A stretch of DNA of 64,000 nt, taken from the NCBI GenBank assembly GCA_013166775.1, contig JABLTJ010000003.1, positions 96,001 to 160,000 of the forward strand, read 5' to 3'. Positions within the stretch are counted from its first letter, which is position 1, and every line of letters starts with the position of its first letter. Below the pieces are notes generated by a model. That model made no database searches. It was not told the origin of the DNA and saw nothing but the letters and a program-made list of their open reading frames with translations. Made by a program: the position numbers and the translations under genes. Of the stretch, positions 2,617 to 31,005 are shown one piece after another. This DNA is from Promethearchaeati archaeon (GTDB lineage Archaea; Asgardarchaeota; Heimdallarchaeia; Heimdallarchaeales; Heimdallarchaeaceae).

Positions 2617-3231
2617 ATGAGTGTCAATTTTAAATCACTTCCAGTTATAATTCTAGCAGCTGGTGATTCTCAAAGAATGGGAGAGATTAAAGGATTGCTT
2701 GATTATAAAGGAAAACCATTTCTAGCATTTCAACTTGAGAAGTTATTGGAAATAGGATTTTGGGAGATAATTGTTGTTCTAGGAAACGATTATCAGATTT
2801 ATCAAGATAAGATTCCTAAACTCAAAAATACAGTAATTACTATAAATCCAAGTCCTGAAAAAGGACAGTTTTCATCGATTCAATACGGACTTTTAGAAGT
2901 GTCAAAAGTAAATCAATCAGGTGTGTTTATCCTTCCTGTAGATGTACCTTGCCCAGAGAAGGAAGTTTGGGAGCACTTGGAAAAAAGCCTGAGCTCATCC
3001 AACGCGAATGTTTCAATCCCAGCATATCAGGGTAAGAAGGGTCATCCCGTAATAATATCAGAAAAATTCAAGGAATATCTTTTAACCTGTAAGACAGATT
3101 CAAGACTCGATTTTGAGATAAACAAACAGAAAGACATGGAAAAAGCAAAGATTATATCAGTAAAAGACAAAAACATTACACGAAATCTTAACACTCCTGA
3201 AAACTGGGAAGAATTTAAGGTGAATCCATGA
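2617..3231 (+). CDS. mocA: Molybdenum cofactor cytidylyltransferase (MocA/YgfJ-like NTP transferase)
   Basis: ILAAGDSQRMG..K, PVDVP, GHPVII and NLNTPE motifs; ATGA overlap with the downstream XDH gene. Confidence 0.8.
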   Translation: MSVNFKSLPVIILAAGDSQRMGEIKGLLDYKGKPFLAFQLEKLLEIGFWEIIVVLGNDYQIYQDKIPKLKNTVITINPSPEKGQFSSIQYGLLEVSKVNQSGVFILPVDVPCPEKEVWEHLEKSLSSSNANVSIPAYQGKKGHPVIISEKFKEYLLTCKTDSRLDFEINKQKDMEKAKIISVKDKNITRNLNTPENWEEFKVNP

Positions 3232-5861
3232 ATGTAAATTTCACTCTCAATGGAGAAGAAGTAACAGTTGATTTTGAAGAAGGCATGAGTGTTCTTGATT
3301 TATTAAGAGAAGTTTGTCTAATCAAAAGCTGTAAGGATGGTTGCTCTGGTCAAGGTTTCTGTGGTGCTTGTACAATTCTCCTTGAAGGTAGAACAAGAAT
3401 GTCTTGCAGATTGAAGCCTGATACTATTGAAGGTAAAGAGATTGTCACTATCGAAGGACTGAGTGAGGAAGAAAAGAAGATTATATCAAAATCTCTTGTG
3501 AAAGAAGGAGCAATACAATGTGGTTTTTGTACTCCCGGAATTACCTTGAAGATTAAAGGATTTCTTGATAGAAACCCAAAATCGACACGGGAGGAGAAGG
3601 CAAATGCAATATCAAGCAACCTCTGCAGATGCACAGGCTATCAAAGAATTCTTGATGCTATGGAAACTGCTGAAGAACACTGGGAAAAGAAAGATACAAA
3701 TATAGCAGGACCTCCAAGAAGAAATGAATTCTTTGGAGAAAAATATGGATTTGAAAGAGAATTTACTCCAAAAGATCAAGGAGTTGGATCAAGTGCTCAT
3801 CGTTACAGAGGAATTGATATGGCTCTTGGAAAGAAACCATTCATAGCTGATATGGAAGCTGAAGGGATGCTTCATGGAGCATTTTTATTAAGTGAATATC
3901 CCAGAGCTATAGTCAGTAAGATTGATACAACTCAAGCTGAATCAGCATGTGGTGTTGTTAAGATTATTACAGCTGAAGATGTTCCAGGTAAACGTATAAT
4001 TGGACATATTATTCCAGATTGGCCAACTTTTGTCGCAGAGGGAGAAACAACCAAGTATATTGGTGATGTTTTAGTGATGGTAATAGCTGACTCAATGATA
4101 CATGCTCGAGCAGCTTTAGAAAAAATCAAAGTTGATTATGAGGTACTTGAACCAATAGATAATCCTGAAACAGCTCTTTCTGCAGAAACTGAAAAATTGC
4201 ATGAGAAAGGGAACCTGCTTGGTCATACTTTCTTTGGTAGAGGGAATGTCAAAGAAGCATTAGATAATTCCAAATATGTGATTAAAAAACAATTCAGAAC
4301 ACAAAGAATAGAACACGCATTTATGGAAGTAGAAAGCTCTCTTGCTGTGCCTACAGAGAAAGGTGTTCATGTTTATAGTCAAGGGCAAGGAGTGCATGAA
4401 GACCAAAGGCAAATAGCGGAAGTTTTAGGGCTAAATGAAGAGGATGTTATCGTTGAGTTAGTTACAAATGGAGGAGCATTCGGAGGAAAAGAAGATCTTT
4501 CATGTCAAGCTCAAACAGCAATAGCTGCGTATCTATTGAAAAAACCTGTCAAAACAGTTTTAACAAGAGAGCAATCTCTCCAAATGCATCCAAAACGTCA
4601 TCCAATGACAATGGATTATGAAGTTGGAGCGGATGAAGAAGGCAAATTTACAGCGGTTAAATTAAGGCTTATAGCTGATTCAGGTGCATATGCTTCCGTA
4701 GGAGCAAAAGTTGTTGAACGTGCTGCTGGACATTGTTGTGGTCCATATTATGTTCCCAATGTAGATGTAGATGCAAAAGCTGTTTACACTAATAATCCAC
4801 CTTGTGGAGCAATGCGTGGATTTGGTGTCAACCAAACTTCATTTGCTATCGAATCATGCCTTAATTTCATTACCAAAAAGATGAGGGATGATGGTGTTGA
4901 TATTGATGATTATGACATAAGAGAAAGGAATATTCTCAGGGATGGACAAAGATTCGCAACTGGACAAATTATGACTAAAACTGTTGTTGGAATGCAAAAA
5001 TGTCTGGATGCAGTGAAAGACGTTTACAAAAGATCTAAAGTTCCTACTGGTATTGCATGTGGAATCAAGAATACTGGTATCGGTAATGGTCTTGAGGATA
5101 CAGGACGAGTTCTCATAAAAGTTCTTGAGAATAAAAAAATAGAGATTCTAACAGGCTTTACAGAGATGGGACAAGGATTATTCACAATATTAACTCAAGT
5201 AGTAAATGAACTAACAGATATACCTCTAACTGATATGTCAGTTAAATCTATCAGTTATCCGACAACAAAATGTGGAATGACAACAGCTTCAAGGGCTACT
5301 GCATTAGATTCAATGGCAGCTAAGATGTCTGCTGAGAAGCTTGCCTTTGCTTTGAAAACCAAGTCTCTGAAAGAACTTGAGGGTGAAGAATTCCATGGAG
5401 AATATATCACTAATTTCACTGTTAAACCTGGAACACAAATCGATAATCCAGTCACACATTTAGCTTTCAGTTATGCAGTTCAAGTTGCTTTTCTTGATGA
5501 AAATGGGAATCTTAAGAAAATGATAGCAGCTCATGATGTAGGAAAAGTTATGAATCCGATGGCTTGTGCAGGTCAAATAGAAGGAGGGATTCATATGGGA
5601 TTAGGTCATACTTTATCCGAAAGCTTCCCAACAACTAACGGAATACCTGATTCTCTGAAAATGAAGGATTTACAAATCGTCAAAGCAAAAGATACTCCTG
5701 AAGTTGAAGTTATTCTTGTTGAAGTACCTGAAGATGTGGGGGGTTTTGGTTCGAAAGGAGTAGGAGAAATTGGTCTAGTACCAACTGCAGGAGCTGTAGT
5801 AGGAGCATTTCATCAATTTGATGGAAAAATTAGAAGCGAGCTTCCACTTCAAAGAAAATAA
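3228..5861 (+). CDS. Selenium-dependent-type xanthine dehydrogenase family molybdoprotein, [2Fe-2S] + Mo domains fused (XdhAC / 2,8-dioxopurine dehydrogenase-like)
   Basis: CKDGCSGQGFCGAC, QCGFCTPG, NLCRCTGY, GGAFGGKED, GAMRGFG, GMTTASR, AAHDVG, GQIEGG, SKGVGEIG; no FAD domain. Confidence 0.85.
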   Translation: MNVNFTLNGEEVTVDFEEGMSVLDLLREVCLIKSCKDGCSGQGFCGACTILLEGRTRMSCRLKPDTIEGKEIVTIEGLSEEEKKIISKSLVKEGAIQCGFCTPGITLKIKGFLDRNPKSTREEKANAISSNLCRCTGYQRILDAMETAEEHWEKKDTNIAGPPRRNEFFGEKYGFEREFTPKDQGVGSSAHRYRGIDMALGKKPFIADMEAEGMLHGAFLLSEYPRAIVSKIDTTQAESACGVVKIITAEDVPGKRIIGHIIPDWPTFVAEGETTKYIGDVLVMVIADSMIHARAALEKIKVDYEVLEPIDNPETALSAETEKLHEKGNLLGHTFFGRGNVKEALDNSKYVIKKQFRTQRIEHAFMEVESSLAVPTEKGVHVYSQGQGVHEDQRQIAEVLGLNEEDVIVELVTNGGAFGGKEDLSCQAQTAIAAYLLKKPVKTVLTREQSLQMHPKRHPMTMDYEVGADEEGKFTAVKLRLIADSGAYASVGAKVVERAAGHCCGPYYVPNVDVDAKAVYTNNPPCGAMRGFGVNQTSFAIESCLNFITKKMRDDGVDIDDYDIRERNILRDGQRFATGQIMTKTVVGMQKCLDAVKDVYKRSKVPTGIACGIKNTGIGNGLEDTGRVLIKVLENKKIEILTGFTEMGQGLFTILTQVVNELTDIPLTDMSVKSISYPTTKCGMTTASRATALDSMAAKMSAEKLAFALKTKSLKELEGEEFHGEYITNFTVKPGTQIDNPVTHLAFSYAVQVAFLDENGNLKKMIAAHDVGKVMNPMACAGQIEGGIHMGLGHTLSESFPTTNGIPDSLKMKDLQIVKAKDTPEVEVILVEVPEDVGGFGSKGVGEIGLVPTAGAVVGAFHQFDGKIRSELPLQRK

Positions 5862-5880
5862 AAGAAAAATAAAGATTAAA

Positions 5881-6837
5881 TTATGGTACTATTCTGGTTC
5901 CTGTTTCACCCTTTAAAGCTCTACTGATATTTTCAGGATTGGTGACTAGAGCTTCTTTACCACCTTGTTCTAGAAATTGAACGATGGCTTTGATCTTAGG
6001 TTCCATTGATCCTTTTGCAAAATGTATTCCTTCTTCTAGATATTTTTTTGCTTCGGCAACAGTCATCTGATCCAGCTCTACTTGATCTGGTTTACCAAAA
6101 TTCAAGGAAACTTTTTCAACAGCCGTTGAAATCAAAAGCATATCTGCATTAATTTTACTGGCCAGAAAAGAAGATGCAAAATCTTTGTCAATTACCGCAG
6201 CAGTTCCCTCTAGTCCTTGATCGGTCTCAATAACAGGTATTCCTCCCCCACCCACAGTAATTGTGATTATTCCAGCATCGATCAATTTTTTGACGGCTTC
6301 CAATTCCATAATTTCTACAGGTAACGGGGAAGGCACAACTCTTCGCCAACCACGACCAGAATCTTCAGTTACATTCCAACCTAGTTCCTCTTTCCTTTGA
6401 TTTGCTTCTTCTGCTTCCATAAACGAACCAATAGGTTTAGCAGGAGCTTGGAAAGCTGGATCATTTGGGTCTACACGGACTTGAGTGACAACTGTCGCTA
6501 CTGATTTATCAATTCCTCTTTTTTTAAGCTCGTTTTGAATATTCTGTTGCAAAGAATAACCAATAGCACCTTGACTATCAGCTCCGCAAACATCTAAGGG
6601 AAGTTCATGCATACCCGATACCTTATGAGCAATTTCACTTCGTCTTAAAATGAATCCAACCTGAGGTCCATTTCCATGTCCTATTGCAATGTCCCAACCA
6701 GCCTCAATCATATCTACTAGGTGATATGAAGTTTCCTGGGCAGCTTTATATTGATCTTTCACAGTTTGATGTTGATTGGATTTAATAAGCGAGTTACCAC
6801 CAATAGCAACAACCGCTACTTTTCTCTGTTTTGACAT
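5881..6837 (-). CDS. arcC: Carbamate kinase
   Basis: AIGGNSL, HGNGPQVG, KPIG, RRVVPSP, GGGGIPV, VIDKD, GSMEPK; start taken as the ATG at 6837. Confidence 0.93.
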   Translation of the reverse strand: MSKQRKVAVVAIGGNSLIKSNQHQTVKDQYKAAQETSYHLVDMIEAGWDIAIGHGNGPQVGFILRRSEIAHKVSGMHELPLDVCGADSQGAIGYSLQQNIQNELKKRGIDKSVATVVTQVRVDPNDPAFQAPAKPIGSFMEAEEANQRKEELGWNVTEDSGRGWRRVVPSPLPVEIMELEAVKKLIDAGIITITVGGGGIPVIETDQGLEGTAAVIDKDFASSFLASKINADMLLISTAVEKVSLNFGKPDQVELDQMTVAEAKKYLEEGIHFAKGSMEPKIKAIVQFLEQGGKEALVTNPENISRALKGETGTRIVP

Positions 6838-7089
6838 TGGTATCACACTCCACATATTAAGGAGTTTAAATATTTCGTTTTCTGACTAAAAAATAAAAAA
6901 TAAAATCTTGAACACATTTAAAAACTGTTTCAGAAGTAAATTCTTCTTCTTCCTTATTGAAGTCAACTATACCTTTGAAATCTATAACATTCATCAATTA
7001 TAATTTAAATCGATTTATAATTCACACACACAAAAAAGCAAAAAAACTAGACAGCTTTTTATATTTTAAAATGCAAATTATATTTTGAT

Positions 7090-7479
7090 ATGACAGTAAT
7101 CCATTGTCCCAAATGTGGAAAAAAACACATAGCAGTTGATAGATATTGCCAATATTGTGGGAAAGATCTAGAAAATATTATATTAATGTTAAAAAGAAAA
7201 AGTCTACCATTAAGATTTCAATCAAAACCAAAACCTCAAAATAGAAGAAAAATATTTCAAAATGAAAAAAAAGTTTCAGAATACACTGAAACTGAAAAAA
7301 AACTAGAGAAATTTGATGTTCTTCCTGAAAATCTAAATAGTCAAAATTTATCAAATTTTCCATTGATTGAGAGTATGGTCAGTTCATTAGGTCCACCTTC
7401 GACTAAGAAGCAAAAAATGAAATTAAAAAGAAAGAAAGACCCTTGGTGGGAAGATTTGATGTTTTGTTGTCCTTTCTAG
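7090..7479 (+). CDS. Zinc-ribbon hypothetical protein with a polybasic, Cys-Cys C-terminus
   Basis: CPKC...CQYC at the N-terminus; ends KKQKMKLKRKKDPWWEDLMFCCPF. Confidence 0.65.
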   Translation: MTVIHCPKCGKKHIAVDRYCQYCGKDLENIILMLKRKSLPLRFQSKPKPQNRRKIFQNEKKVSEYTETEKKLEKFDVLPENLNSQNLSNFPLIESMVSSLGPPSTKKQKMKLKRKKDPWWEDLMFCCPF

Positions 7480-7618: not shown

Positions 7619-8590
7619 CTAACGCATTGTTAAAGCCATTACTGCTTTCTGTGCATGCATCCTATTTTCTGCTTGATCAAAGACAACTGACTGTGGACCA
7701 TCCATTACTTCACTGGTTACCTCTACATCGCGATCTGCTGGAAGTGGGTGCATGTAAATAGCATCCTTATGTGCTAAAGCCATTTTCTTTGAATCTGTGA
7801 TCCAATCCTTGTATTGATTCTGTATTTTCTTTCCTTCTTCTGGATCATTAGTTGTAAGCAAAAGACCCCAAGATTTGGCATAAACTATTTCTGCATCTTT
7901 GAAACCTTCTTTCATACTATCGACTACCTCAAATTTAGTGTCGAATGTAGTAGCTTGTTCTTGTGCTTGTTGCATAATCTCTGACATCAACTTAAATTCT
8001 GGTGGATGTGCTAAAGTAACATCTAATCCGAATCTGGGCATTTGTAGAATCAAAGACTGTGGTACTGAAATTGGTTTCAGGTACGAAGAAGCATATGCCC
8101 ATGAAACCACTATCTTCTTTCCTCTTAAATCGCGACTTTTTTTCTCAATGATTGTCATGATATCAGCAAGACATTGGTGAGGATGATAGACGTCACATTG
8201 CATATTCAAAACTGGTGAGCGAGAAGCTGATGCTACATGGTTAATGTACTTATTACCAATTCCCCAATCACAATGACGAATAACAATTCCATCAAAATAT
8301 CTTCCAAAGATTTCTCCTAGTTCTTTTTCGGTATCTCCATGAGAAACTTGAGTTGTTCGACTCTCCATGAATGCTGCATGTCCTCCTAGTTGTGCCATTC
8401 CAGCTTCATAAGAAGCTCTGGTGTGTGTACTGGAGAAGAAGAACAGCATAGCGAGAGTTTTATCTAGAAGTAAAGCATGTTACTCACCCAACGCTCTTCT
8501 TTTCTTAAGATCCCAAACAATTTCCAAGACAGGTTCTACTTCTTCTTTTGTAAAATCTAAGTCTCCTATTAAGTCATGACTGCAGATATT
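7619..8590 (-). pseudogene. YgeW-like (knotted) carbamoyltransferase pseudogene
   Basis: Frame continues upstream of 8449 as DLIGDLDFTKEEVEPVLEIVWDLKKRRALGE*HALL with an in-frame TAA at 8480-8482 and no ATG; the STRT motif reads STHT; WAYASSYLKPISVPQ and HPLPADR retained. Confidence 0.8.
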
Positions 8591-8685
8591 TTTTTGTGTT
8601 ATTATTAAGTATTCAATTCTAAACAATTTCAGAGTATAACTGATATTTTTTTATGAGAAAAAATTATATGAAACTAAATGCTGGG

Positions 8686-8928: not shown

Positions 8929-8999
8929 TCCTTTCATCAATATGATGGAAAATGGAGTGTAGAACTTCCGATTGCAAAAAAAATAAAGAGTTTGTAAAA

Positions 9000-10208
9000 A
9001 TGAAAGATCAAATATTAGCTAAAGTTGAAGAATATAAACTTGATTTATTCAAGTTTTTACGAGATATGATTCGTATTCCAAGTACAAGTACTAAAGAGGA
9101 AAAACTCGTTAAGAGGATTAAAGAAGAAATGGAAAAGCTTGGATATGATGAAATTAGGATTGATAAGATGGGTAATATCTTAGGGAGAATAGGAGATGGT
9201 AAACATGTTATAGCTTTTGATGGCCATATAGATACAGTTGATGTTGGAAATCGAGAGCTTTGGACTCATGATCCTTTTGAAGGATATGAAGATGATGAAG
9301 TAATTTACGGTAGAGGGGGAAGCGATCAAGAGGGTGGTTTTGCTTCTATGGTTTATGCTGGTAAAATTATCAAAGATCTTGATATAGCAGGTGACACTAC
9401 TGTTTGGATTGTTGGAACAGTTCAGGAGGAGGATTGTGATGGACTCTGCTGGCAGTATATAATAGAAGATAAGGTAATCGAACCAGAATTTGTTATTCTA
9501 ACAGAACCAACTTCTCTGCGCGTATATAGAGGTCATAGAGGTAGGATGGAAATCAAAGTTACTGTAACAGGATTAAGCTGTCATGGTTCAGCTCCTGAAC
9601 GAGGTGATAATGCCATCTATAAAATGGCTTCTATCTTAAAAGAACTAAAGGAATTACATCCTAAACTTAAAGATGATCCATTCTTAGGCAAAGGATCTTT
9701 AACCGTTTCTGAGATTTTCTCTAAATCACCATCTAGATGTGCTGTTGCAGACGAATGTTCTATCTCAATTGATAGAAGATTAACTTTTGGAGAGAATAAA
9801 GACTCTGCTATTGGCGAGATTAGAGACTTACCTTCAGTTAGAGAGCACAATGCCAAAGTAGAGATGTATACTTACGATAAACCATCGTATACAGGATTTC
9901 AGAAGAAAGTTGATTGTTACTTTCCAACTTGGCTTATTCAAGAGGATAATCCATTATGTGGGATGTTAGTAGAAACAGCAACAGAAATAACAGGTGAAGA
10001 AGCACTTCTAGATAAATGGACTTTCTCAACTAATGGTGTTTCAATCATGGGTATGCACAACATCCCATGTATTGGGTATGGTCCTGGAAGAGAGAACCAA
10101 GCTCATGCTCCGAATGAAATCACTTTCAAAAGTGAATTGATGACAGCAGTTGCAGTGTATGCTGCTATACCTTTAAAATACACTGAACTTAAGAAAAAAC
10201 AGGTGTAA
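9000..10208 (+). CDS. ygeY: YgeY-family M20 hydrolase
   Basis: [69 protein letters not shown]; start taken as the ATG at 9000. Confidence 0.9.
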
Positions 10209-10210
10209 TT

Positions 10211-11176
10211 ATGAGATCTAAACTTAGAGGAAAAGACTTCATAACTTTACGTGATTGGTCAAAAGAAGAAATTGATATTCTTCTAGAAGTTTCAGCTGAA
10301 ATTAAAGAGAAATTCAAGAAAGGAGAAGTAACTCCTTATCTTCCCTATCAAACAATGTTTCTAATGTTCTTTGAGCAATCAACCAGAACGAGAAACTCAA
10401 TGGAAGCAGGATTTGCTCAACTGGGTGGTCATGCTAATTTTCTAGATACTTCTACCATGCAAATTTCTCATGGTGAAGAAGCACGAGATACAGCTGCTAT
10501 CTTGTCTAGTTATGGTCATGCAATCGCTTGCAGAAATTGTTTCTGGGGAATAGGAAACAAATATCTCAATGATATGGCAAAACATTCCAAGGTTCCCATC
10601 ATGAATCTGCAGTGTGATCTATTCCACCCTATGCAAGGAATTGCAGATTTATTGACAATTACCGAACACAAAGGGAAAACTAAAAATCTCAAGGTTTCAA
10701 TCATCTGGGCTTATGCTACAAGTCATAAGAAACCTATCTCTGTTCCACTCACTCAAGCATTACTTTTCCCACGCTATGGAATGGATGTAACCTTAGCTTA
10801 TCCAGAAGGTTTTGAACTACCAGACTGGGTAATTGTAGAAGCAAAAGAGAATGCTGAGAAAAATGGTGGTTCCTTTAGAATCACTCTCGATATGAAGGAA
10901 GCTTATACTAACGCAGATATTGTTATTCCTAAGAACTGGGGTAGTTGGAGTGGTAAGAAGGGAGATATGGACTTAGAGCAATTCAAAGACTGGAAATGTA
11001 CAGAAGAGATGATAAAACTTGCTTCACCAGATGTAAAATACATGCATGCACTTCCAGCTGATAGAGGAAATGAAGTGGAAGATTCAGTCATAGATGGTCC
11101 TCATTCTATCGTTCTTGATGAAGCAGAAAATAGGCTCCATACTGCAAAAGCTGTAATGATTTTAACAATGGGCTAG
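10211..11176 (+). CDS. ygeW: YgeW-like knotted carbamoyltransferase (intact)
   Basis: STRTR, HPMQ, WAYATSHKKPISVP (YgeW-type loop), HALPADRG; 2 nt downstream of ygeY. Confidence 0.75.
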   Translation: MRSKLRGKDFITLRDWSKEEIDILLEVSAEIKEKFKKGEVTPYLPYQTMFLMFFEQSTRTRNSMEAGFAQLGGHANFLDTSTMQISHGEEARDTAAILSSYGHAIACRNCFWGIGNKYLNDMAKHSKVPIMNLQCDLFHPMQGIADLLTITEHKGKTKNLKVSIIWAYATSHKKPISVPLTQALLFPRYGMDVTLAYPEGFELPDWVIVEAKENAEKNGGSFRITLDMKEAYTNADIVIPKNWGSWSGKKGDMDLEQFKDWKCTEEMIKLASPDVKYMHALPADRGNEVEDSVIDGPHSIVLDEAENRLHTAKAVMILTMG

Positions 11177-11186
11177 AATAAAAGCT

Positions 11187-11516
11187 TTAGTGAGGCGAGG
11201 CGCTTTGAAATGAATCGAGCATTTTGAAGGTATCCTTGATAGATTCCATGTAAAAATCGCCTGCTCGGGTCATTTTAGCATCAGCAAATCCTGTTACCTT
11301 ATCACCTAATCGGAGCATAGCTGTTTCATGTGCTAAACGAGTCCTAGTGGAAGGTTGGTAAAAAGCTGTTACCAAGGTTTTCTCTTTCAGCAAGTCAACA
11401 TTTTTCCTGTTACGAGCAATCGGTTCCAATTTTTCTGCAACCTCAAATATTCGCTCAAATTCATGGCGTTCAAAATCTTTTAATGAAAGAATGTCACGCC
11501 CTTTAAAACTTCTCAT
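11187..11516 (-). pseudogene. Truncated aspartate-carbamoyltransferase-like gene (N-terminal third only)
   Basis: FYQPSTRTRLAHETAMLRLG...ESIKDT, then unrelated residues and a stop after 109 aa, abutting ygeW convergently. Confidence 0.8.
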
Positions 11517-22720: not shown

Positions 22721-22849
22721 AATTAGGTTTAACACCTATCGTATTTAAATTATTTTTCGACTTTAGATAAAAAGTATCCTAAATCATTGAAATCTTGATT
22801 ATCCTCTTAAAAAGGGAAAATTCTTATGAAAGTAAGATATTGTAAAATT

Positions 22850-24142
22850 ATGAAGGCTATAATCAATGTAAAAATATATGATTATGAGACTTATATTGAA
22901 GATGGTTATTGTATTTACGGTAAAGAAATCATTGAAGTTGGAGAAATGAAGAACTTTCCTGATTTTGATGATGAAATTATTAATGGGAAAAACAAAATCC
23001 TTCTCCCTGGTTTAATCAATTTCCACACTCATATTTATTCAACACTCATCCGTGGAGCTTCAATTCCGTTTAATCCTAAGACTTTTAGAGACATTCTAGA
23101 GCAGCTCTGGTGGAAATTTGATAGTAAGCTAGATAATAATGCTACATTCCACAGTGCAATGGTTTATGGTTTAGAATCTCTAAAGAATGGTGTCACATCG
23201 CTAATTGATCATCATGCAAGTGGTATAGATATTATCGGTAGTCTTGATGCGTTAAAGAGTGCAATTGTTGATAAATTAGGTATGCGTGGTATATTTTGTT
23301 TTGAAACAAGTGATCGTTTCAATATGGAAGAATGTATAAAGGAAAACTTAGCAGGACTGAAATTTAATTCTTCTGACGCTAGAGGAATGTTTGGTTTGCA
23401 TGCTTCTATGAGTCTTTCAGAAGAAACCCTGGATAAAGTTTCTAGGGTTCTAAAAGGAGCTCCCATCCATGTTCATGTAGCTGAAAGCATAGAAGATGAA
23501 GAAGATTCTATTGATAAATACAGAGTGAGAGTTATCAATCGTTATCTCAATTATGGACTTTTGAATAAAGATTCTATCCTCGCTCATTGCGTTCATATTA
23601 ATGAAGATGAAGCTAATTTTATTAGCCAAAATAAAGCTGTTATTGCTCTTAATCCGACATCTAATATGAATAATGCAGTTGGAGCTTTCAATATTGATCT
23701 CTTCAGAAATAATAAAATTCCGATACTTATAGGAAACGATGGACTTGGGACAAACATTGCAAAAGAATGGACATATTTCTTCTTTGCAGGTAAAGCTGGA
23801 ATAAAAGATGCTGCTGGTATTGGTTTTGATGAATTGTTAAAATACATTAATGATTCTTATGATTATTTTAGTCGCCAAATGGGTATAAAGATTGGAAAAA
23901 TCAAAAATGGGTACGTAGCTGATTTTGTTCTAGTTCCATATCTTAATCCTACAAAAATGGATGAAAGCAATGCTTTTGGTCATGTATTCTTTGGTTTGTT
24001 TGACAATTTCAAACCATCTTGTGTGATAGTAAAAGGTAAGACTCTGATAGAGAATTACAAGAGTATTTTCGATGAGGAAACATTATATAAGAACGCTCAT
24101 ATGGCTTCTAAAGCCTTATGGGAAAGGTTAGGAGCTGCCTAA
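22850..24142 (+). CDS. ssnA: SsnA-like amidohydrolase
   Basis: PGLINFHTHIYS, ILEQLWWKFD, GVTSLIDHHAS, CFETSDR, FGLHAS, HVHVAES, NPTSNMNNAVG. Confidence 0.82.
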   Translation: MKAIINVKIYDYETYIEDGYCIYGKEIIEVGEMKNFPDFDDEIINGKNKILLPGLINFHTHIYSTLIRGASIPFNPKTFRDILEQLWWKFDSKLDNNATFHSAMVYGLESLKNGVTSLIDHHASGIDIIGSLDALKSAIVDKLGMRGIFCFETSDRFNMEECIKENLAGLKFNSSDARGMFGLHASMSLSEETLDKVSRVLKGAPIHVHVAESIEDEEDSIDKYRVRVINRYLNYGLLNKDSILAHCVHINEDEANFISQNKAVIALNPTSNMNNAVGAFNIDLFRNNKIPILIGNDGLGTNIAKEWTYFFFAGKAGIKDAAGIGFDELLKYINDSYDYFSRQMGIKIGKIKNGYVADFVLVPYLNPTKMDESNAFGHVFFGLFDNFKPSCVIVKGKTLIENYKSIFDEETLYKNAHMASKALWERLGAA

Positions 24143-25222
24143 ATGGATCTTTCAGTAAAATTACTTGGTCTTGACTTTGAAAATCCCCTTGGACCCGCTG
24201 CTGGTCCTCTTGTTGAAGGACTAGAAAACATGCAGTTTTTTAACAATAATTCATGCGGTTATAATGTTGCCAAGACAATATCTGTTGAAGGAGCAATTGT
24301 TCCAAAACCTTGTATTGCTGGAACTACACAAGCAATTTATAATTGCGAACTTTGGTCTGAACATCATTCGGATGTTTGGATAAACGAAATTCTACCAACA
24401 CTTCAGAAAGAGAAGAAGAAACCAATAATTATCAGTGCTGGATATAAAGAAGAAGATTTTAGATATCTCATTCCGAAGCTTGATTCTTTTGCTGATATGT
24501 TTGAAATTTCTACTCATTATGTTTCAGAAGATTTACTTCCTGGTATAGTAAAAAGCATCAGAGAGAACACTGAAAAACCTGTTTTTATGAAACTTAGTCC
24601 GCATATAGATGATTTTATTGGTTTTGTGAAAACAGTTATCGATGCAGGTGCAACAGGCATTGTTGCTATTAATTCATTAGGTCCAGGAACAGCTATAGAT
24701 TTGAAAGCTCGTTCCGTACTTCTTGCTGAACAAATTTGGATGAGTGGTCCACCAATAAAACCAATCGCTCTTCATAGAATCTACAACATTAGAAAAGAAT
24801 TTCCTGACATTCCTATCATAGGTGTAGGTGGAATAGGGAAGGCTGAAGATGTTCTTGAGTTCATTCTTGCTGGTGCTGATCTTGTTCAGATGCTTTCATC
24901 AGCTCTGATTAAAGGAAGAGGATTATATGATAAGATAATCAAGGATTTACCAAAAGCTCTTGAAAAATATGGATTTAATTCGATTGAAGAAATCAGGCAA
25001 GTTAGGAAAGCAACCATTTTCAAAGATATCGATACAGCTGTTGATAATCATCCATCTTTCAATGAAAAATGTACTATGTGTATGATTTGTGTGAAAATCT
25101 GCCCTGCTGGAGCTTTGTCAGCTGCTGAAGAAAGAATTGTTGTCGATAAGGAAAAATGTATTCACTGTGGACTTTGTGAAAGTCGTTGTCCTGTAGACGC
25201 TATTTATGGAGTGCTTAGATGA
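24143..25222 (+). CDS. Dihydroorotate/dihydropyrimidine dehydrogenase-like FMN protein with a C-terminal 2x[4Fe-4S] domain (PreA-like)
   Basis: NP...AAGP, KT, NCELWSE, MKLSP, SGPPIKPIAL, GVGGI; CTMCMICVKICP and CIHCGLCESRCP. Confidence 0.8.
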   Translation: MDLSVKLLGLDFENPLGPAAGPLVEGLENMQFFNNNSCGYNVAKTISVEGAIVPKPCIAGTTQAIYNCELWSEHHSDVWINEILPTLQKEKKKPIIISAGYKEEDFRYLIPKLDSFADMFEISTHYVSEDLLPGIVKSIRENTEKPVFMKLSPHIDDFIGFVKTVIDAGATGIVAINSLGPGTAIDLKARSVLLAEQIWMSGPPIKPIALHRIYNIRKEFPDIPIIGVGGIGKAEDVLEFILAGADLVQMLSSALIKGRGLYDKIIKDLPKALEKYGFNSIEEIRQVRKATIFKDIDTAVDNHPSFNEKCTMCMICVKICPAGALSAAEERIVVDKEKCIHCGLCESRCPVDAIYGVLR

Positions 25223-26430
25223 CAACGTATATTCTAAGGTGTATAACCTGCAAAAAGGAATTTGATTCCCAACCAGGTCTCTATTATTGTGAAGATTGTG
25301 GGAAAATAATGGGGACTTTGGAGGTTGTTTATGACTATGAATCTATTAAAGAAGATCCGGTTGTAAGAGAGAAGAAATTTGATAAAAAAGCTTCAATGTA
25401 TCAATTCAGTTTTCTTTTACCCACTATATCAAAACTGCAACTCGATGAGTATGTTGGAGGTACTCCTCTGTATAAGTTTGATCTTCTTGGTATGAAAGAT
25501 GTACTCGTTAAGTATGATGGTTCTAATCCTTCTAGTTCTTACAAAGATCGAGCAAGCTCTATTGCAATTAACAAAGCTATAGATGAGGGTAATGATATTC
25601 TGTTTTGCGCATCTACTGGTAATGCAGCAGCATCATTAGCAATGCTTAATGCATATACTGATATGAAAACATACATTTTCGTTCCTGCAGCAATACCTGA
25701 TGGTAAAAGAGCTCAACTTGAAATATCAGGTGCAGAAGTATATGCAGTTGAAGGGACCTATGATGAGGTTTATGACTTATCCCTTGATTTAGGTCTCGAA
25801 AAAGGATGGTATTGTAGACACGCTGCAATTAATCCCTATCTTCTAGAAGGAAAGAAAACAGGAGCTTTCGAAATAGTAATTCAAAATGATTTTGAGGTTC
25901 CTGATTACGTTTTCATTGGTGTTGGTGATGGAACAGTTGTTAGTTCTCTTTACAAAGGATTTTGGGAGTTTAGAGAAATTGGCTTAACAGACAAAATTCC
26001 AAAAATAATTGGTGTTCAAGCTGAAGGAATTCCGGCGATAAAGGAAGCTTTTGAAAAAGGAAAACCATACAAACCTATTGCAATTGATGGGAGTACAGTA
26101 GCTGATAGTATATCAGTAGGAAAACCCAGAGATGTCATCAAAGCATGCACTTATGTTGAGGCTAGTAATGGATTTTTCATATCTCTCACAGATGATGAGA
26201 TTCTCGATGCAATTAAAGAGTTAGGAAAAACAGGAATATTTGCAGAACCAGCTGGAGCTGTACCATACGGAGGGCTGAAAAAACTTATTTACGAAGAAAA
26301 AATCACTGAATCAGACACTGTTTGTTTAGTTATTACTGGAAATGGACTAAAAGATGTCAATGCAGTTAAAGACGCGATTAGTAAAACAATATTCACTACT
26401 GAAGAAGTAATTAAAAGGTTTGAAGAATGA
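25219..26430 (+). CDS. Threonine-synthase-like fold-type II PLP enzyme
   Basis: N-terminal CxxC..CxxC, NPSSSYKDR, ASTGNAA, EGKKT, GVGDG, EPAGA, ITGNGLK; ATGA overlaps on both sides. Confidence 0.85.
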   Translation: MTTYILRCITCKKEFDSQPGLYYCEDCGKIMGTLEVVYDYESIKEDPVVREKKFDKKASMYQFSFLLPTISKLQLDEYVGGTPLYKFDLLGMKDVLVKYDGSNPSSSYKDRASSIAINKAIDEGNDILFCASTGNAAASLAMLNAYTDMKTYIFVPAAIPDGKRAQLEISGAEVYAVEGTYDEVYDLSLDLGLEKGWYCRHAAINPYLLEGKKTGAFEIVIQNDFEVPDYVFIGVGDGTVVSSLYKGFWEFREIGLTDKIPKIIGVQAEGIPAIKEAFEKGKPYKPIAIDGSTVADSISVGKPRDVIKACTYVEASNGFFISLTDDEILDAIKELGKTGIFAEPAGAVPYGGLKKLIYEEKITESDTVCLVITGNGLKDVNAVKDAISKTIFTTEEVIKRFEE

Positions 26431-27788
26431 AATTTATATTGAATCAAAAAGTCATGGAAACAGGTGAATCACCAAGTTTCCATACACTTGATTTCCTAAG
26501 AAAGATTGGAATAAAAGGAGTAAAGGAAGGGTGTCATGAGGGAGATTGTGGGGCATGCATGGTTTTGATCGGGGAGCTCAAAGATAGCCAAGTCAAATAC
26601 AAAGCTATGAATTCATGCATACTTCCATTAGGTAGGATTGAAGGTAAGCATGTAGTAACAATCGAGGGATTGAATCTAAAAGAAAAATTGAATCCTATCC
26701 AACAAGCACTTTTTGATGAAGGTGGAGTACAATGTGGTTACTGTACACCAGGTTTTGTCATTGCTTTAATGGCTTATTTCATGAACATAGATCTTGAGGA
26801 CACAGAAATCATTACAGCAGTTGAAGGAAATATTTGCAGATGCACCGGATATAATTCAATTTTACGTGCTGCAGAAAAAGCTTCCAATGTTATCTCATCT
26901 TTAGATGATTCAGAAGGAAGGATTGCTGCACTTATAAAAGCAGATTATCTACCTAGTTATTTTTCTGGAATAATCAATCAATTAAAAGACATACAAATCG
27001 AACCTCAGCCAGAAAAAGGAACTTACGTAGCTGGAGGAACTGATCTGTTTGTTAACAGACAAACTGCTGAAAATCCAATATTTTTAGCAGAATTAGGTTT
27101 TGATAAAATCTGGTCAAATGAATCTCATGTCTATGTTGGTGCAGCAGCTGATATAGAAACTATACGAACGTCTGAAGAGTTAAACTTTCTTTTTGATACT
27201 GCACATCATCTAGCGAGAGTATCATCACTTCCAATACGACAACAAGCAACTATTGGTGGAAATGTAGTAAATGCTTCTCCTATAGGTGATCTTACAATTT
27301 ATTTTCTTGCTCTTGATGCTGAAATTGGTCTTGTTTTGGGAGAAGATAAACGAATTATGAAACTCAAAGATTTCTTCAAAGGCTATAAAATTCTAGAGCT
27401 TCAAGATAGAGAAATAGTAGAATGGTTCCGAATTAAAAAAGAGAAAAAACTGCTTTCTTTTGAAAAAGTAGCAAAAAGAATGCATATGGATATTGCGAGT
27501 GTAAACAGCGCATTATCACTCAAAATTGAAGATAAGAAGATTAAGGAACCTCACCTATCTGGAGGAGGTATCGGACCAATTCCAATGTATCTTGAAAAAG
27601 CTTCACAATACCTTGAGAACAAAGAAATATCCTCTGAAGTAGTTAAAGAAGCTGCTAGAATAGCTGATACAGAAATAAATCCAATTGATGATGTCAGAGG
27701 AAGTGCAAAGTACAAGCGATTACTCCTCAGACAATTGATTTATGCTCATTTTGTGAAACTTTTTCCTGAATTGGAGGTGTCTTTATGA
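26427..27788 (+). CDS. xdhA: Xanthine dehydrogenase small subunit ([2Fe-2S] + FAD)
   Basis: KEGCHEGDCGAC, QCGYCTPG, GNICRCTGY, AGGTD, ATIGGNVVNASPIGD, PIDDVRGSAKY. Confidence 0.9.
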   Translation: MKFILNQKVMETGESPSFHTLDFLRKIGIKGVKEGCHEGDCGACMVLIGELKDSQVKYKAMNSCILPLGRIEGKHVVTIEGLNLKEKLNPIQQALFDEGGVQCGYCTPGFVIALMAYFMNIDLEDTEIITAVEGNICRCTGYNSILRAAEKASNVISSLDDSEGRIAALIKADYLPSYFSGIINQLKDIQIEPQPEKGTYVAGGTDLFVNRQTAENPIFLAELGFDKIWSNESHVYVGAAADIETIRTSEELNFLFDTAHHLARVSSLPIRQQATIGGNVVNASPIGDLTIYFLALDAEIGLVLGEDKRIMKLKDFFKGYKILELQDREIVEWFRIKKEKKLLSFEKVAKRMHMDIASVNSALSLKIEDKKIKEPHLSGGGIGPIPMYLEKASQYLENKEISSEVVKEAARIADTEINPIDDVRGSAKYKRLLLRQLIYAHFVKLFPELEVSL

Positions 27789-30025
27789 ACGAATTGATTC
27801 CCCCTCATACACGAGGTGAATCTGTCTTTGTTGATGATATCCCTGAACCAAAGAACATGCTACACACAGCTGTTTTTGTTTCAGATATTGTTCATGGAAA
27901 AATAAAAAATCTAGATATTAGAATAGCTGTGAAAAGTGAGGGGGTTGTGAAAATTATCACTGCAAAAGATATCCCAGGAGAAAACCAGCTTGGTCGAATC
28001 ATTCAGGATGAAGAGCTTTTAGCAGAGGAAAAAGTAGACTTCATAGGGCATCCTATTGTAGTTGTTTATGCAGAAACAAAGGAACAAGCAAATAGAGCTA
28101 AAGAGTTAATTACTATTGATTATGAGGAACTTCCTGCTATTTTTGATCCCAGAGTTGCTGCGAAAAAGGGTTCGTTAATAGCTCCATCTCGAACCTTTAC
28201 ATTAGGAGATGTTGATTCAATATGGGATAGTTGTGAAACTATCGTTGAAGGAAGAGCTGAGTCAGGAGGACAAGAGCATATCTATATGGAGCCTCAAGGG
28301 AGTTTAGCAATTCCAAGAGAAGATGGTCGAGTGCTACTCTATTCAAGTACTCAGAATCCATCAACTGTTCAAAGCACTGTCGCTAAAATCCTAGGTTTTG
28401 ATATGAACAAAATAGAGGTTGATGTAACAAGACTTGGAGGAGGATTTGGAGGAAAGGAGGATCAAGCAACTGCATGGGCTGCAATTTGTGCTTTAGGAGT
28501 TTATTATACCAGTAGGCCTGTAAAATTAATTCTTGATAGACAAGAGGATATCACAATCACAGGTAAACGTCATCCATATTCCACAGATTATAAAATAGGG
28601 ATTGATAAAGAAGGAAAAATTCTCGCATTTTCAGCGGATTACTATCAAAATTCTGGTGCAGCTGCTGATCTTTCAACAGCTGTACTGGGAAGAACTTTAT
28701 TCCATGTAACAAATGCTTATTTTATTCCTAATGTTCGAGTGACAGCTTATCCGTGTAGGACAAATCTTGTACCTTTTACAGCATTTAGAGGATTTGGAGC
28801 TCCACAAGGAATGTATGTAATAGAATGTGCTCTATCTCATATTGCAGATGAATCAGGAATCCCCATTTCCATTCTACAAGAAAAGAATCTACTAGAGGAT
28901 GGAGATCAATTCCCTTATGGGATGATTACTAAAAACACACATGCGAAAAGAAGTTTTGCAAAAGTTATTCAAGATTCTCAATATGAGCTTTTGAAGAAAG
29001 AAAAAGAGGAATTCAATGCAAAAAGCAAGTTTCTGAAAAAAGGAATCTCTATCATGCCCATCTGCTTTGGAATTTCATTTACATCAACCTTCATGAATCA
29101 AGCTGGAGCGCTTGTGAACGTCTATTATGATGGGAGTGTAAATGTTAGTACAGGAGCTGTTGAGATGGGACAAGGAGTAAATATGAAGATTAAGACAATC
29201 GCAACTCGCTTTCTGTCTATTGACTCAAAACGGATACGCGTTGAAAGTACAAACACTAGTCGAGTCATAAATACTTCACCGACCTCTGCTAGTAGCGGTG
29301 CAGATCTTAACGGCAAAGCAACAGAATTTGCATGTTTGAAAATAATTGAAAGATTAAAGAATCTTGCCAATGAGAAATTGGGTGAAGGAATTATCACAAT
29401 AGAAAACGAAGTAGTTTATCTCGATGGAGTTAAAACAGAATTAGTTTGGGAGGAACTTATTTGGTTAGCATATACAAATCGAGTTAATCTGGCTGCACAG
29501 GCTTTGTATGCAACACCTGGAATCTACTTCGATAATGAAAAAGAAAAAGGAAAACCATTTGCTTATCATGTCTTTGGGGCAGCAGTAATAGAAGTAACTG
29601 TAGATTGCTTGAGGGGAACCTATACTATAGATAAGGCTCATGTAGTCCATGATGCAGGACGAAGTCTGAATTATCTCATAGATTTAGGACAAGTAGAAGG
29701 TGGACTTGTTCAAGGGATAGGATGGATGACTCTAGAAGAATTACAATATGTTGATGGAAAGCTAATTACAGATGCTTTGGCTACCTACAAAGTACCTGAT
29801 GTTCACTTCGCACCAGAAATTAAAGCGACCTTCCTTGAAGATGCAGACAACCCTTATGCAGTTTTAGAATCAAAAGGAATAGGAGAACCACCGTTTATGT
29901 ATGGAATCGGAGCTTATTTTGCCTTGAAAGATGCTGCTCAAGCTTTCAGAAATGATAAAGAATGGGATTATACTGCTCCTTTGACACCAGAAAGAATCTT
30001 ACTCTATCTCCATAACCTGGAATAA
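27785..30025 (+). CDS. xdhB: Xanthine dehydrogenase molybdopterin-binding subunit
   Basis: GGQEHIYME, SSTQNP, RLGGGFGGKE, TAFRGFGAPQG, FGISFT, EMGQG, GQVEGG, SKGIGEPP. Confidence 0.92.
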   Translation: MNELIPPHTRGESVFVDDIPEPKNMLHTAVFVSDIVHGKIKNLDIRIAVKSEGVVKIITAKDIPGENQLGRIIQDEELLAEEKVDFIGHPIVVVYAETKEQANRAKELITIDYEELPAIFDPRVAAKKGSLIAPSRTFTLGDVDSIWDSCETIVEGRAESGGQEHIYMEPQGSLAIPREDGRVLLYSSTQNPSTVQSTVAKILGFDMNKIEVDVTRLGGGFGGKEDQATAWAAICALGVYYTSRPVKLILDRQEDITITGKRHPYSTDYKIGIDKEGKILAFSADYYQNSGAAADLSTAVLGRTLFHVTNAYFIPNVRVTAYPCRTNLVPFTAFRGFGAPQGMYVIECALSHIADESGIPISILQEKNLLEDGDQFPYGMITKNTHAKRSFAKVIQDSQYELLKKEKEEFNAKSKFLKKGISIMPICFGISFTSTFMNQAGALVNVYYDGSVNVSTGAVEMGQGVNMKIKTIATRFLSIDSKRIRVESTNTSRVINTSPTSASSGADLNGKATEFACLKIIERLKNLANEKLGEGIITIENEVVYLDGVKTELVWEELIWLAYTNRVNLAAQALYATPGIYFDNEKEKGKPFAYHVFGAAVIEVTVDCLRGTYTIDKAHVVHDAGRSLNYLIDLGQVEGGLVQGIGWMTLEELQYVDGKLITDALATYKVPDVHFAPEIKATFLEDADNPYAVLESKGIGEPPFMYGIGAYFALKDAAQAFRNDKEWDYTAPLTPERILLYLHNLE

Positions 30026-30051
30026 AATGCAAGAAATATGGTGTATTAATT

Positions 30052-31005
30052 GTGAATGAAGAAGATCTCTGGGAAAAGATAATAACAGAACTTGAAGAAG
30101 GTAAGAATATTGTACTTGTTATTATAATCCATAGAACAGGTTCAGCTCCAAATGTACCAGGAGCAAAGATGCTAGTTATGTCAGATAACGTAATGGGGAC
30201 TGTGGGAGGTGGTATTTCAGAGCATAGATTGCAGGACTGTGCTCGAGTTATACTTTCTAAAGGAAATTTAACTGTTGAAACTCTTCATTTAGATCACAAT
30301 GAAAATGCAACAGAGAATCGTTCTGGAATGATATGCTCTGGATTACAAAAATTTGCTCTGATTCTGTTTAGTAAGGAGCACTTACCAATGGTAAAAGAGA
30401 TCAAGGAGTCTCATACTAGGGCAGTTGCTGGTGTTTTTACAATAAATGAGGAAAGTATCTATTTTGAATCAGGAATCTCGCTCAAAGTAGATAGGATTTA
30501 TTCTGAAGAAGGCACTTCTTGGACTTATAAGGAGAACACAGGTGTTCAAGATAGATTCTTTATAATAGGTGGAGGGCATGTTTCTCTTGCGCTATCACGT
30601 ATTCTAAAAACTCTAAACTTCCATGTTACAATAATTGATGATAGAAATAAATTACCAACAATGATTTCAAATACTTATGCAAATGAGAAGATAGTTGCAT
30701 CATATGATAGCATTACTGAAATTATACCTGAAGGAAAGAATATTTTTGTTGCGATAATGACTTTTGGTCACATATCAGACCAACAAGTACTTGAGAAGAT
30801 TATCACGAAAAAGTGCAAATATATGGGTATGATGGCGAGTTCAAGAAAGAAACAACAGATTTTCAATAACCTTGAGAAAAAAGGTATATCAAAAATCCTT
30901 CTTGATAAAATACATACACCTATTGGAATTAAAATCAAAAGCCACACTCCTGAAGAGATTGCTATTAGTATCGCTGCTGAAATTATTCAAGTAAAGAATT
31001 CATAG
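30052..31005 (+). CDS. xdhC: XdhC/CoxI family Moco insertion chaperone
   Basis: GSAP..PGAKM, GTVGGG, GMICSG, GGGHV, MTFGH..D, PIGI.I.SHTPEEIAISIAAE. Confidence 0.88.
   Translation: MNEEDLWEKIITELEEGKNIVLVIIIHRTGSAPNVPGAKMLVMSDNVMGTVGGGISEHRLQDCARVILSKGNLTVETLHLDHNENATENRSGMICSGLQKFALILFSKEHLPMVKEIKESHTRAVAGVFTINEESIYFESGISLKVDRIYSEEGTSWTYKENTGVQDRFFIIGGGHVSLALSRILKTLNFHVTIIDDRNKLPTMISNTYANEKIVASYDSITEIIPEGKNIFVAIMTFGHISDQQVLEKIITKKCKYMGMMASSRKKQQIFNNLEKKGISKILLDKIHTPIGIKIKSHTPEEIAISIAAEIIQVKNS

Follow-up and report, generated by a model that had tools for sequence, protein, structure and literature searches.

We analysed a gene cluster at positions 2617-31005 of a 64,000-nucleotide stretch (hereafter, the window) of contig JABLTJ010000003.1 from a Heimdall-group Asgard archaeon (assembly GCA_013166775.1), and found that it probably encodes a working, horizontally acquired fermentation of purines and urate through the reductive (2,8-dioxopurine) pathway. 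Twelve pathway open reading frames (ORFs) were intact within this span. The assignment draws on the gene content, homology and synteny of the cluster, on its donor lineages and its distribution among related genomes, and on purifying selection, all of which were observed at the level of sequence. The reductive urate pathway was worked out in 2025 in studies that treated bacteria only and left archaea unmentioned (Liu et al., 2025, 10.1101/2025.04.24.650524; Li et al., 2025, PMC12507026). The gene set fitted the pathway of both studies, as an initial annotation of this stretch had proposed. The archaeal cluster is a known pathway, here as a variant in a new domain of life.

Gene content of the cluster

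Gene families were assigned with Pfam and NCBIfam models, and bit scores were compared with the NCBIfam cut-offs (Table 1). All coordinates are positions in the window. Every gene named in the initial annotation was recovered as an intact ORF where that annotation had placed it. The mocA gene overlaps the start of the gene for the fused hydroxylase by 4 nucleotides and lies directly upstream of it in every Heimdall locus examined. The hydroxylase is a candidate urate 6-dehydroxylase of the 2,8-dioxopurine dehydrogenase type. In relatives its gene neighbours mocA and ygeY, and bacterial homologs sharing 39-56% identity with it are encoded in clusters with ssnA, ygfK and hyuA. No carbamate kinase other than that of the cluster was found in the genome. 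The hydantoinase gene comes after the carbamoyltransferase gene in both Heimdall and Clostridia loci. For the SsnA-like and hydantoinase genes, gene position and co-occurrence agree with the SsnA and HyuA slots.

The genes from ssnA through xdhC form a tightly coupled operon. The ssnA stop codon abuts the start of the gene for the UacX-type reductase, the uacX, thrC-like, xdhA and xdhB genes overlap by 4 nucleotides each, and xdhC is kept after xdhB in genomes G015 and G018.

Table 1. Features of the purine cluster in the window, with model scores in bits and NCBIfam cut-offs (Moco, molybdenum cofactor; DHODH, dihydroorotate dehydrogenase; PLP, pyridoxal phosphate; ATCase, aspartate carbamoyltransferase).
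Feature	Position	Strand	Family evidence
MocA-like molybdenum cofactor cytidylyltransferase	2617-3231	+	PF12804; best NCBIfam TIGR03310, 123 (cut-off 186)
Fused 2Fe-2S and Moco hydroxylase, no FAD subunit	3228-5861	+	TIGR03311 'Se_dep_XDH', 899.6 (cut-off 830.45)
Carbamate kinase	5881-6855	-	TIGR00746, 383.8 (cut-off 358); 51% identity to E. coli YqeA
Pseudogene of carbamoyltransferase 'OTC-a'	7622-8608	-	329 codons aligned, 87.5% identity to the intact gene of genome G032
YgeY-type M20 hydrolase	8952-10208	+	TIGR03526, 630.8 (cut-off 321.5); 62% identity to E. coli YgeY
Short carbamoyltransferase 'OTC-b', 321 aa (YgeW slot)	10211-11176	+	PF02729 and PF00185; YgeW model, 198 (cut-off 453)
N-terminal stub (103 codons) of ATCase-like carbamoyltransferase 'OTC-c'	11208-11516	-	88% to residues 1-103 of the G032 protein
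Hydantoinase/dihydropyrimidinase-family amidohydrolase (HyuA slot)	11668-12999	+	TIGR02033, 309 (cut-off 393); 30% to E. coli HyuA
Intervening genes, probably outside the pathway	13227-22735		Pfam, NCBIfam; absent from the compact G015 cluster
SsnA-like amidohydrolase	22826-24142	+	Best NCBIfam SsnA, 349 (cut-off 444); 30% to E. coli SsnA
UacX-type reductase, DHODH-like FMN barrel and two 4Fe-4S motifs (YgfK slot)	24143-25222	+	PF01180 and Fer4
Threonine-synthase-like (ThrC-like) PLP enzyme (YgeX/DpaL slot)	25219-26430	+	PF00291; DpaL model NF006058, 40 (cut-off 276)
XdhA, 2Fe-2S and FAD subunit	26427-27788	+	PF01799, PF00941, PF03450; TIGR02963, 323 (cut-off 467)
XdhB, Moco subunit	27785-30025	+	TIGR02965, 781 (cut-off 849)
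XdhC-type Moco insertion/sulfuration chaperone	30052-31005	+	PF02625 and PF13478

Predicted pathway and evidence for purines as substrates

Which compounds the enzymes act on, what donates their electrons and what the ThrC-like enzyme does are inferred, and on this basis we predict a pathway of seven steps. XdhAB would oxidise hypoxanthine and xanthine to urate (step 1), from which the fused Fe-S/Moco hydroxylase, probably fed by ferredoxin because it has no FAD subunit, would strip the 6-oxo group to give 2,8-dioxopurine (step 2). The UacX-type FMN/4Fe-4S reductase and SsnA would dearomatise the purine and open the first ring (step 3), and the hydantoinase would yield 2,3-diureidopropionate (step 4). 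OTC-b would phosphorolyse one ureido group, with carbamate kinase making ATP from the carbamoyl phosphate (step 5), and YgeY would hydrolyse the second ureido group (step 6). Finally, the ThrC-like PLP enzyme, replacing YgeX, would convert 2,3-diaminopropionate to pyruvate and ammonia (step 7). With hypoxanthine as the starting substrate, step 1 would release four electrons, as many as steps 2 and 3 use up.

We compared the active sites of both hydroxylases with xanthine oxidoreductase (XOR), in which we take bovine Gln767, Glu802, Arg880, Phe914, Phe1009 and Glu1261 to be the purine-binding and catalytic positions. XdhB matched human XOR (2ckj) with 566 bits, and Gln768, Glu803, Arg881, Phe915, Phe1010 and Glu1262 of the human enzyme were all conserved. 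The fused hydroxylase and its cluster-linked bacterial homologs keep the equivalents of bovine Gln767, Glu802, Arg880, Phe914 and Glu1261. The pathway genes are widely kept in the archaeal family (f1): the fused xanthine dehydrogenase (XDH) was found in 26 of 30 genomes, and SsnA, the ThrC-like enzyme and XdhB in 25 of 30 each. Between genomes without Moco genes, the ratio of nonsynonymous to synonymous substitution rates (dN/dS) of pathway genes was 0.04-0.15 with saturated dS (hydroxylase, 0.07-0.11; SsnA, 0.06-0.08).

The cluster could instead degrade pyrimidines or other ureides through an ATP-yielding reductive pyrimidine pathway, which would comprise a PydA-like reductase, a dihydropyrimidinase, an M20 carbamoyl-amino-acid hydrolase and a carbamoyltransferase with carbamate kinase. 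We consider this unlikely. Two XDH-family enzymes with purine-binding residues are encoded in the same operons, and pyrimidine breakdown has no use for an end step of the diaminopropionate type. The reductase does fall within the DHODH/PydA family, but its subfamily is without the Cys loop of PydA and PyrD. Likewise, the top NCBIfam match of the hydantoinase is the dihydropyrimidinase model TIGR02033, and OTC-c of relatives scores as an aspartate carbamoyltransferase, which would suit N-carbamoyl-aspartate; in bacteria, however, the six downstream genes all occur together with YgfK, SsnA and XdhD, the genes that experiments have tied to urate. A purine fermentation remains the reading that we prefer.

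Alternatives to YgeW, YgeX and YgfK

Three enzymes of the cluster differ from those of the standard pathway. Of the 80 genome loci retrieved as most similar to YgeY, 79 were bacterial, and their genes were assigned to types by comparison with the window and E. coli proteins. The carbamoyltransferase slot was occupied by OTC-b alone in 40 loci and by YgeW alone in 31, with both in none. The ThrC-like enzyme alone was found in 37 loci, YgeX alone in 16 and both in one, and the reductase slot contained the PF01180 type alone in 18, YgfK alone in 21 and both in one. All mixed combinations were seen, such as YgeW with the ThrC-like enzyme and YgfK, or OTC-b with YgeX and YgfK, and this is the pattern expected of isofunctional replacements. 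The three atypical enzymes are alternatives, standard in bacteria, for YgeW, YgeX and YgfK. In the archaeal genome, tblastn with E. coli YgeX gave no match anywhere, and E. coli YgfK matched a GltD-like protein on contig C54 alone. The suggestion of the initial annotation that two non-standard enzymes fill the YgfK and DpaL slots was borne out by their near-exclusive occurrence with YgfK and YgeX in the 79 bacterial loci.

The identification of the carbamoyltransferase as YgeW in that annotation was not upheld. YgeW models scored 182-199 bits against cut-offs of 453-500, and the protein is 321 aa long versus 396 for YgeW, with 38% identity. In the carbamoyltransferase tree, OTC-b and OTC-a formed one clade apart from YgeW. 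The OTC-b clade excluded YgeW in 71 of 71 informative bacterial loci, and OTC-b homologs with 63-77% identity adjoin ygeY in 40 of the 79.

Where PyrD has N-x-S-C-P in its active-site loop, every cluster-linked homolog of the reductase, bacterial or Asgard, has the short loop E-[IV]-S-[TC]-H. Since the loop is conserved across bacteria and archaea, the missing loop Cys is a family trait rather than damage. UacX (Q181U4), also a PF01180 protein, takes the place of YgfK in C. difficile (Li et al., 2025, PMC12507026).

The ThrC-like subfamily retains the PLP lysine throughout. The canonical ThrC motif S-x-N-P-x-R-x-E-G-Q-K is changed to A-I-N-P-[YHF]-[LMV]-x-E-G-K-K, and the Thr after STGN is replaced by Ala. 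We take the changed positions, with reference to the T. thermophilus enzyme, to be those that bind the phosphate of O-phosphohomoserine in threonine synthase, and these phosphate-binding residues were not kept in the subfamily. Replacement of YgeX by a ThrC-like enzyme is not mentioned by Li et al. (PMC12507026) or Liu et al. (10.1101/2025.04.24.650524), and no description of it was found in the literature on ygeY with threonine synthase.

Cofactor supply and other points against the pathway

Several observations weigh against a working purine fermentation. SsnA, HyuA, OTC-b, XdhA and XdhB all scored below the NCBIfam equivalog cut-offs, and the reductase is labelled UacX-type from its domains, subfamily and position. 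The carbamate kinase gene stands without its upstream operon partners, which puts its expression in question. No NCS2 or AzgA purine permease was found in the genome by tblastn with E. coli XanQ, UacT and GhxQ as queries. SelD, YqeB and YqeC were not found above cut-offs in this 88.7%-complete genome. Pfam searches for MoaA (C-domain), MoaC and MoeA (MoeA_N) were negative in all 29 genomes of genera g1-g4, and MoaB was also without a match in this genome.

In bacteria the pathway needs SelD, and every cluster-bearing strain had YqeB and YqeC (Liu et al., 2025, 10.1101/2025.04.24.650524). SelD and YqeB were also not found in five relatives, two of them single-contig genomes (G015 and G016); YqeC was searched for in the present genome only. 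A SelD-like match proved to be HypE (370 bits) and was rejected. Against the whole genome, tblastn with E. coli YqeB matched XdhC of the cluster alone, and YqeC gave no match. The initial annotation had called the hydroxylase 'Se-type'; it does match TIGR03311 ('Se_dep_XDH'), but with SelD, YqeB and YqeC absent the label was not supported.

The sister genus g5 has the MoaA C-domain, MoaC and MoeA in both of its two genomes, with a moaC-moaA-MOSC-moeA-moaB locus at 10024-13650 of locus L359, and among neighbouring families MoaC was found in 3/3 genomes of f3, 11/12 of f4 and 2/2 of f6. MoaC is mostly missing from families f5 (2/22) and f7 (0/12). When the present genome was searched by tblastn with proteins of the G015 Moco locus, the flanking genes were recovered at 45-56% identity and MoaC, MOSC, MoeA and MoaB were not. 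E. coli MoaA-E and MoeA as queries matched only MoeB/ThiF-like and weak radical-SAM proteins, which were set aside. The search for MoaE (PF02391) was negative in all 31 genomes, even where a Moco locus exists, and was not counted. The genome keeps two XDH-family enzymes, six to seven AOR-family pterin enzymes and one PF00384 protein.

These data could mean that the genes are present but inoperative, the hydroxylases being apo-enzymes without Moco/Se maturation and the cluster a decaying remnant of a transfer. We give this little credence. The absence of MoaA, MoaC, MoaB, MoeA, SelD, YqeB and YqeC would fit such decay, but none of the 12 pathway ORFs is disrupted, about 25 of the 30 family genomes retain the same set, and the genome still has its six to seven AOR-family enzymes. 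One pseudogene and one gene stub do lie inside the cluster; both can be accounted for by a cassette of equivalent function that took their place, as described below.

The initial annotation had held that a genome lacking Moco/Se maturation genes would refute its interpretation. These genes were indeed absent, but conservation and dN/dS speak against decay. We did not take the absence as refutation, because about 25 of 30 genomes conserve the pathway genes with dN/dS of 0.04-0.15. At saturated dS, such values imply that these genomes kept the genes over a long period of divergence that followed the loss of the Moco genes, and decay of the pathway is unlikely. Cofactor scavenging, an unrecognised biosynthetic route or a systematic assembly gap are possible explanations. 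No paper addressing this cofactor gap was found in the literature on Heimdallarchaeia with molybdopterin.

A broader proposal is possible but, taken as a whole, rather doubtful. The genus and three sister genera may run the purine pathway and their six to seven AOR-type enzymes on a pterin (Mo/W) cofactor that they do not make themselves, which they would obtain from syntrophic partners as Moco or a precursor and finish with the retained MocA and XdhC, using sulfur rather than selenium in the active site. Most of the genus would, in addition, phosphorolyse both ureido groups (two carbamoyltransferases, no YgeY) and gain two ATP per purine rather than one. If true, these would be cofactor-auxotrophic prokaryotes that maintain a large set of molybdo- and tungsto-enzymes.

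Role of XdhAB

XdhAB could also make urate as an antioxidant for aerotolerance, with the neighbouring genes unrelated to it, a reading that we regard as very improbable. Strain HC1, a cultured member of the Hodarchaeales, expresses Xdh, which was read as a source of urate that scavenges reactive oxygen species (Imachi et al., 2025, 10.1101/2025.02.26.640444). Family f4 has XdhB orthologs (51-54% identity) but neither SsnA nor the fused XDH or the ThrC-like gene. In f1, xdhAB shares an operon with ssnA-uacX-thrC-like and is translationally coupled to these genes, and it is accompanied by a second hydroxylase, of the urate-reducing type, and by all of the downstream genes. The operon context points to a role of Xdh in catabolism, instead of or besides the supply of antioxidant urate.

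Host genome and bacterial origins of the cluster

The genome comprises 3.85 Mb in 115 contigs, with a GC content of 0.33, and carries an archaeal small-subunit (SSU) rRNA on contig C52. Its RpoA1 was 88-90% identical to those of 'Ca. Heimdallarchaeota' metagenome-assembled genomes (MAGs) and 55-64% identical to those of other archaea, and the fused hydroxylase was 83% identical to its counterpart in Heimdallarchaeota AB_125. The contig with the cluster is 214 kb long, with GC of 0.31-0.38 along its whole length, and Asgard-typical genes were also found in the window. Because of the SSU rRNA, RpoA1, the hydroxylase match and the uniform GC of the contig, the view of the initial annotation that the host is an Asgard archaeon holds. 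A mis-binned bacterial contig can in effect be dismissed: the nearest homologs outside the family are bacterial, some with 87-93% identity, but the 214-kb contig bears Asgard-typical genes, its GC contrasts with 0.47-0.62 in Anaerolineales loci, and two single-contig genomes and more than 20 independent Heimdall MAGs, AB_125 among them, show the same layout.

We constructed trees from loci picked only for YgeY similarity, with roots not inferred. In the YgeY tree, the eight Asgard sequences formed one clade (SH-aLRT 99), sister (SH-aLRT 100) to three Clostridia, Fusibacter tunisiensis and two MAGs. The Asgard sequences grouped with loci L067 and L081 in the ThrC-like and UacX trees (SH-aLRT 100), and the nearest rows for SsnA were L067 and L031, members of the same trio. 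In the single-contig genome G015 the whole set is contiguous and in the same gene order as in Clostridia L067 and L081. The shared ygeY-otcB-hyuA-ssnA-uacX-thrC-like order therefore supports a single transfer of a six-gene block, and its direction is indicated by the wide bacterial spread of the block as against a single archaeal family. These relationships indicate that the block came from Clostridia-like bacteria.

A second donor is indicated by the carbamate kinase. In the archaeal genus, YgeY was found in only 2 of 24 genomes, and the hydroxylase in 21, SsnA in 19, and the ThrC-like enzyme and XdhB in 20 each. The YgeY-less genomes contain a minus-strand otcC-otcA-arcC operon between the hydroxylase gene and hyuA, in which OtcC is ATCase-like and OtcA resembles ornithine carbamoyltransferase (OTC). 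The intact OTC-c of G032 (317 aa) scored 257 bits with TIGR00670 (cut-off 237). The same operon occurs in dozens of Anaerolineales MAGs with GC of 0.47-0.62. Amino-acid identities between the Anaerolineales and archaeal proteins reached 93% for otcC, 93% for otcA and 87% for arcC, nucleotide identity of the module was about 78%, and the carbamate kinase of the window was 82-87% identical to the Anaerolineales operon kinase. The module has a GC of 0.40-0.42 versus 0.33-0.35 for the archaeon, and the carbamate kinase gene has 0.40. By this evidence the module is native to Anaerolineales and moved to Asgard archaea recently, since protein identities to Anaerolineales are 82-93%. Horizontal acquisition, which the initial annotation had thought probable, thus agrees with both the gene trees with Clostridia and the Anaerolineales identities, and the cluster is a mosaic from at least two bacterial donors.

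In the window, a ygeY-otcB cassette lies inside the otcC-otcA-arcC operon, with carbamate kinase as its sole survivor. The two other members persist as the OTC-a pseudogene and the OTC-c stub, two carbamoyltransferase remnants absent from the list of the initial annotation. OTC-a has lost both start Met codons and contains an in-frame TAA at about 8488-8490, and its carbamoyl-phosphate motif reads STHTR for STRTR. A 276-aa ORF at 7619-8449 was considered as a second functional carbamoyltransferase and rejected, given the upstream frame with a stop, the lack of a start and the damaged motif. The arrangement indicates that the ygeY-otcB cassette displaced otcC and otcA in this genome.

The locus of genome G011 (contig C27, L183/L184) contains a clear 134-residue relic of the hydroxylase C-terminus (79% identity) directly upstream of ygeY and within about 400 bases of it, after an inserted carbamate kinase gene, and this relic is the footprint of a similar cassette exchange at the locus. 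In the window, a possible relic of the hydroxylase 3' end upstream of ygeY (8929-8970; 14 residues, E = 0.026) was suggestive at most. The family thus has two interchangeable routes for removal of the ureido groups, a hydrolase with a transferase or two transferases, of which the two-transferase route could give two carbamoyl phosphates.

Comparison with known clusters

Among clostridial urate clusters, C. sporogenes XdhAC is 2,8-dioxopurine dehydrogenase (DOPDH; Liu et al., 2025, 10.1101/2025.04.24.650524), and C. difficile has XdhD-UacX-SsnA-HyuA-UacY-YgeY-YgeX (Li et al., 2025, PMC12507026). As in these clusters, the fused Fe-S/Moco hydroxylase of the Asgard cluster is without an FAD subunit, and a PF01180 reductase stands in for YgfK, here beside the SsnA-like gene. 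The Asgard cluster further shares with them a putative hydantoinase, YgeY and a separate XDH feeding in hypoxanthine and xanthine, and it shares with C. sporogenes and E. coli a carbamoyltransferase with carbamate kinase for ATP. It differs in its archaeal host, in the ThrC-like enzyme for YgeX and the short OTC-like transferase for YgeW/UacY, in the feeding XDH, which is of the Rhodobacter/eukaryote XdhAB type with an XdhC chaperone, and in that no SelD, YqeB, YqeC or Moco biosynthesis genes were found in the genome.

The E. coli K-12 locus (ygeW-ygeX-ygeY-hyuA-yqeA ... mocA-ygfK-ssnA-ygfM-xdhD) follows the same pathway logic and has YgeY, carbamate kinase, MocA and, at 30% identity each, the putative SsnA and HyuA in common with the archaeal cluster, which in contrast is without YgfK, YgfM, YgeX, the yqeB/yqeC pair, GuaD and the permeases XanQ, UacT and GhxQ, and has a hydroxylase only 24% identical to XdhD.

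The closest resemblance was to the bacterial variant ygeY-otcB-hyuA-ssnA-uacX-thrC-like, which has the same six genes in the same order with 39-77% identity to the Asgard proteins and occurs in Fusibacter tunisiensis (L081), a Clostridia MAG (L067), Erysipelotrichaceae, Izemoplasmatales and Halanaerobium. In four gene trees the Asgard sequences were closest to members of this variant. Downstream of the six genes, L067 and L081 encode a hydroxylase like E. coli XdhD, whereas the Asgard cluster has the TIGR03311-type hydroxylase upstream and XdhAB downstream.

In Anaerolineales (Chloroflexota), a ThrC-like gene and a distant SsnA-like amidohydrolase gene are often near otcC-otcA-arcC. The operon is intact in Anaerolineales and in most genomes of the archaeal genus, and the window has the kinase alone. 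For Chloroflexota, Li et al. (PMC12507026) described an F420-type reductase variant only.

Genes inside and beside the cluster

About 9.5 kb of unrelated genes split the cluster in two. They comprise three ORFs of no family, a SagB-like dehydrogenase, a leucine-rich repeat (LRR) protein, a MacB/FtsX ABC pair, a PadR regulator and a zinc alcohol dehydrogenase (ADH). At 13227-17070, the SagB-family peptide dehydrogenase (TIGR03605, 120 bits, cut-off 78) is preceded by the three no-family ORFs. G023 (g1) retains the ABC-PadR-ADH genes between hyuA and ssnA, and ABC-PadR is also found after hyuA in G011 (g2). The SagB-LRR-ABC-PadR stretch with the three ORFs may have been inserted into the purine locus as a small cluster for modifying and exporting a peptide.

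An EamA/DMT-family transporter gene lies at 34292-35311 (+), 3.3 kb downstream of xdhC, and a homolog with 44% identity is directly upstream of mocA in G014 (L185, 3606-4487). Because no NCS2 or AzgA permease was found, this transporter is a candidate substrate carrier.

A gene for a creatininase-family cyclic amidohydrolase (1830-2576, +) is located directly upstream of mocA. We left it out of the pathway, its position beside the cluster not being conserved in the relatives examined; in one other archaeal MAG (L218) a homolog with 25% identity lies between hyuA and otcC. In G015 (L179, 15589-17052), a 487-aa cysteine-synthase-like PLP protein and a separate beta-propeller protein are encoded between the carbamoyltransferase gene and hyuA. 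A stretch of about 760 bp between the carbamate kinase gene and the OTC-a pseudogene contains a 129-aa zinc-ribbon ORF (7090-7479, +). In G032, the carbamate kinase and OTC-a genes are adjacent.

Discussion

No description of an archaeal cluster of this kind was found in the literature on Heimdallarchaeia with xanthine dehydrogenase or on ssnA with archaea. New in this analysis are the counts of how often the three atypical enzymes replace the standard ones, the module from Anaerolineales, the cassette swap, which explains the relics in the window, the absence of selenium genes and the family-wide absence of Moco genes.

Three uncharacterised replacements were common in bacteria: a ThrC-like enzyme for YgeX, a short carbamoyltransferase for YgeW, and a pair of ATCase-like and OTC-like transferases for YgeY with YgeW. 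Predictions of urate consumption by microbes of the gut and the environment should take them into account.

The cluster would place the pathway in Heimdall-group Asgard archaea, which are among the closest known relatives of eukaryotes. It would give these syntrophs, which scavenge peptides and nucleic acids, a redox-neutral and ATP-yielding use of purines, and it offers an alternative to the antioxidant-urate reading of Heimdallarchaeial Xdh. The missing Moco and selenium genes raise the testable question of whether cofactors are shared in Asgard consortia.

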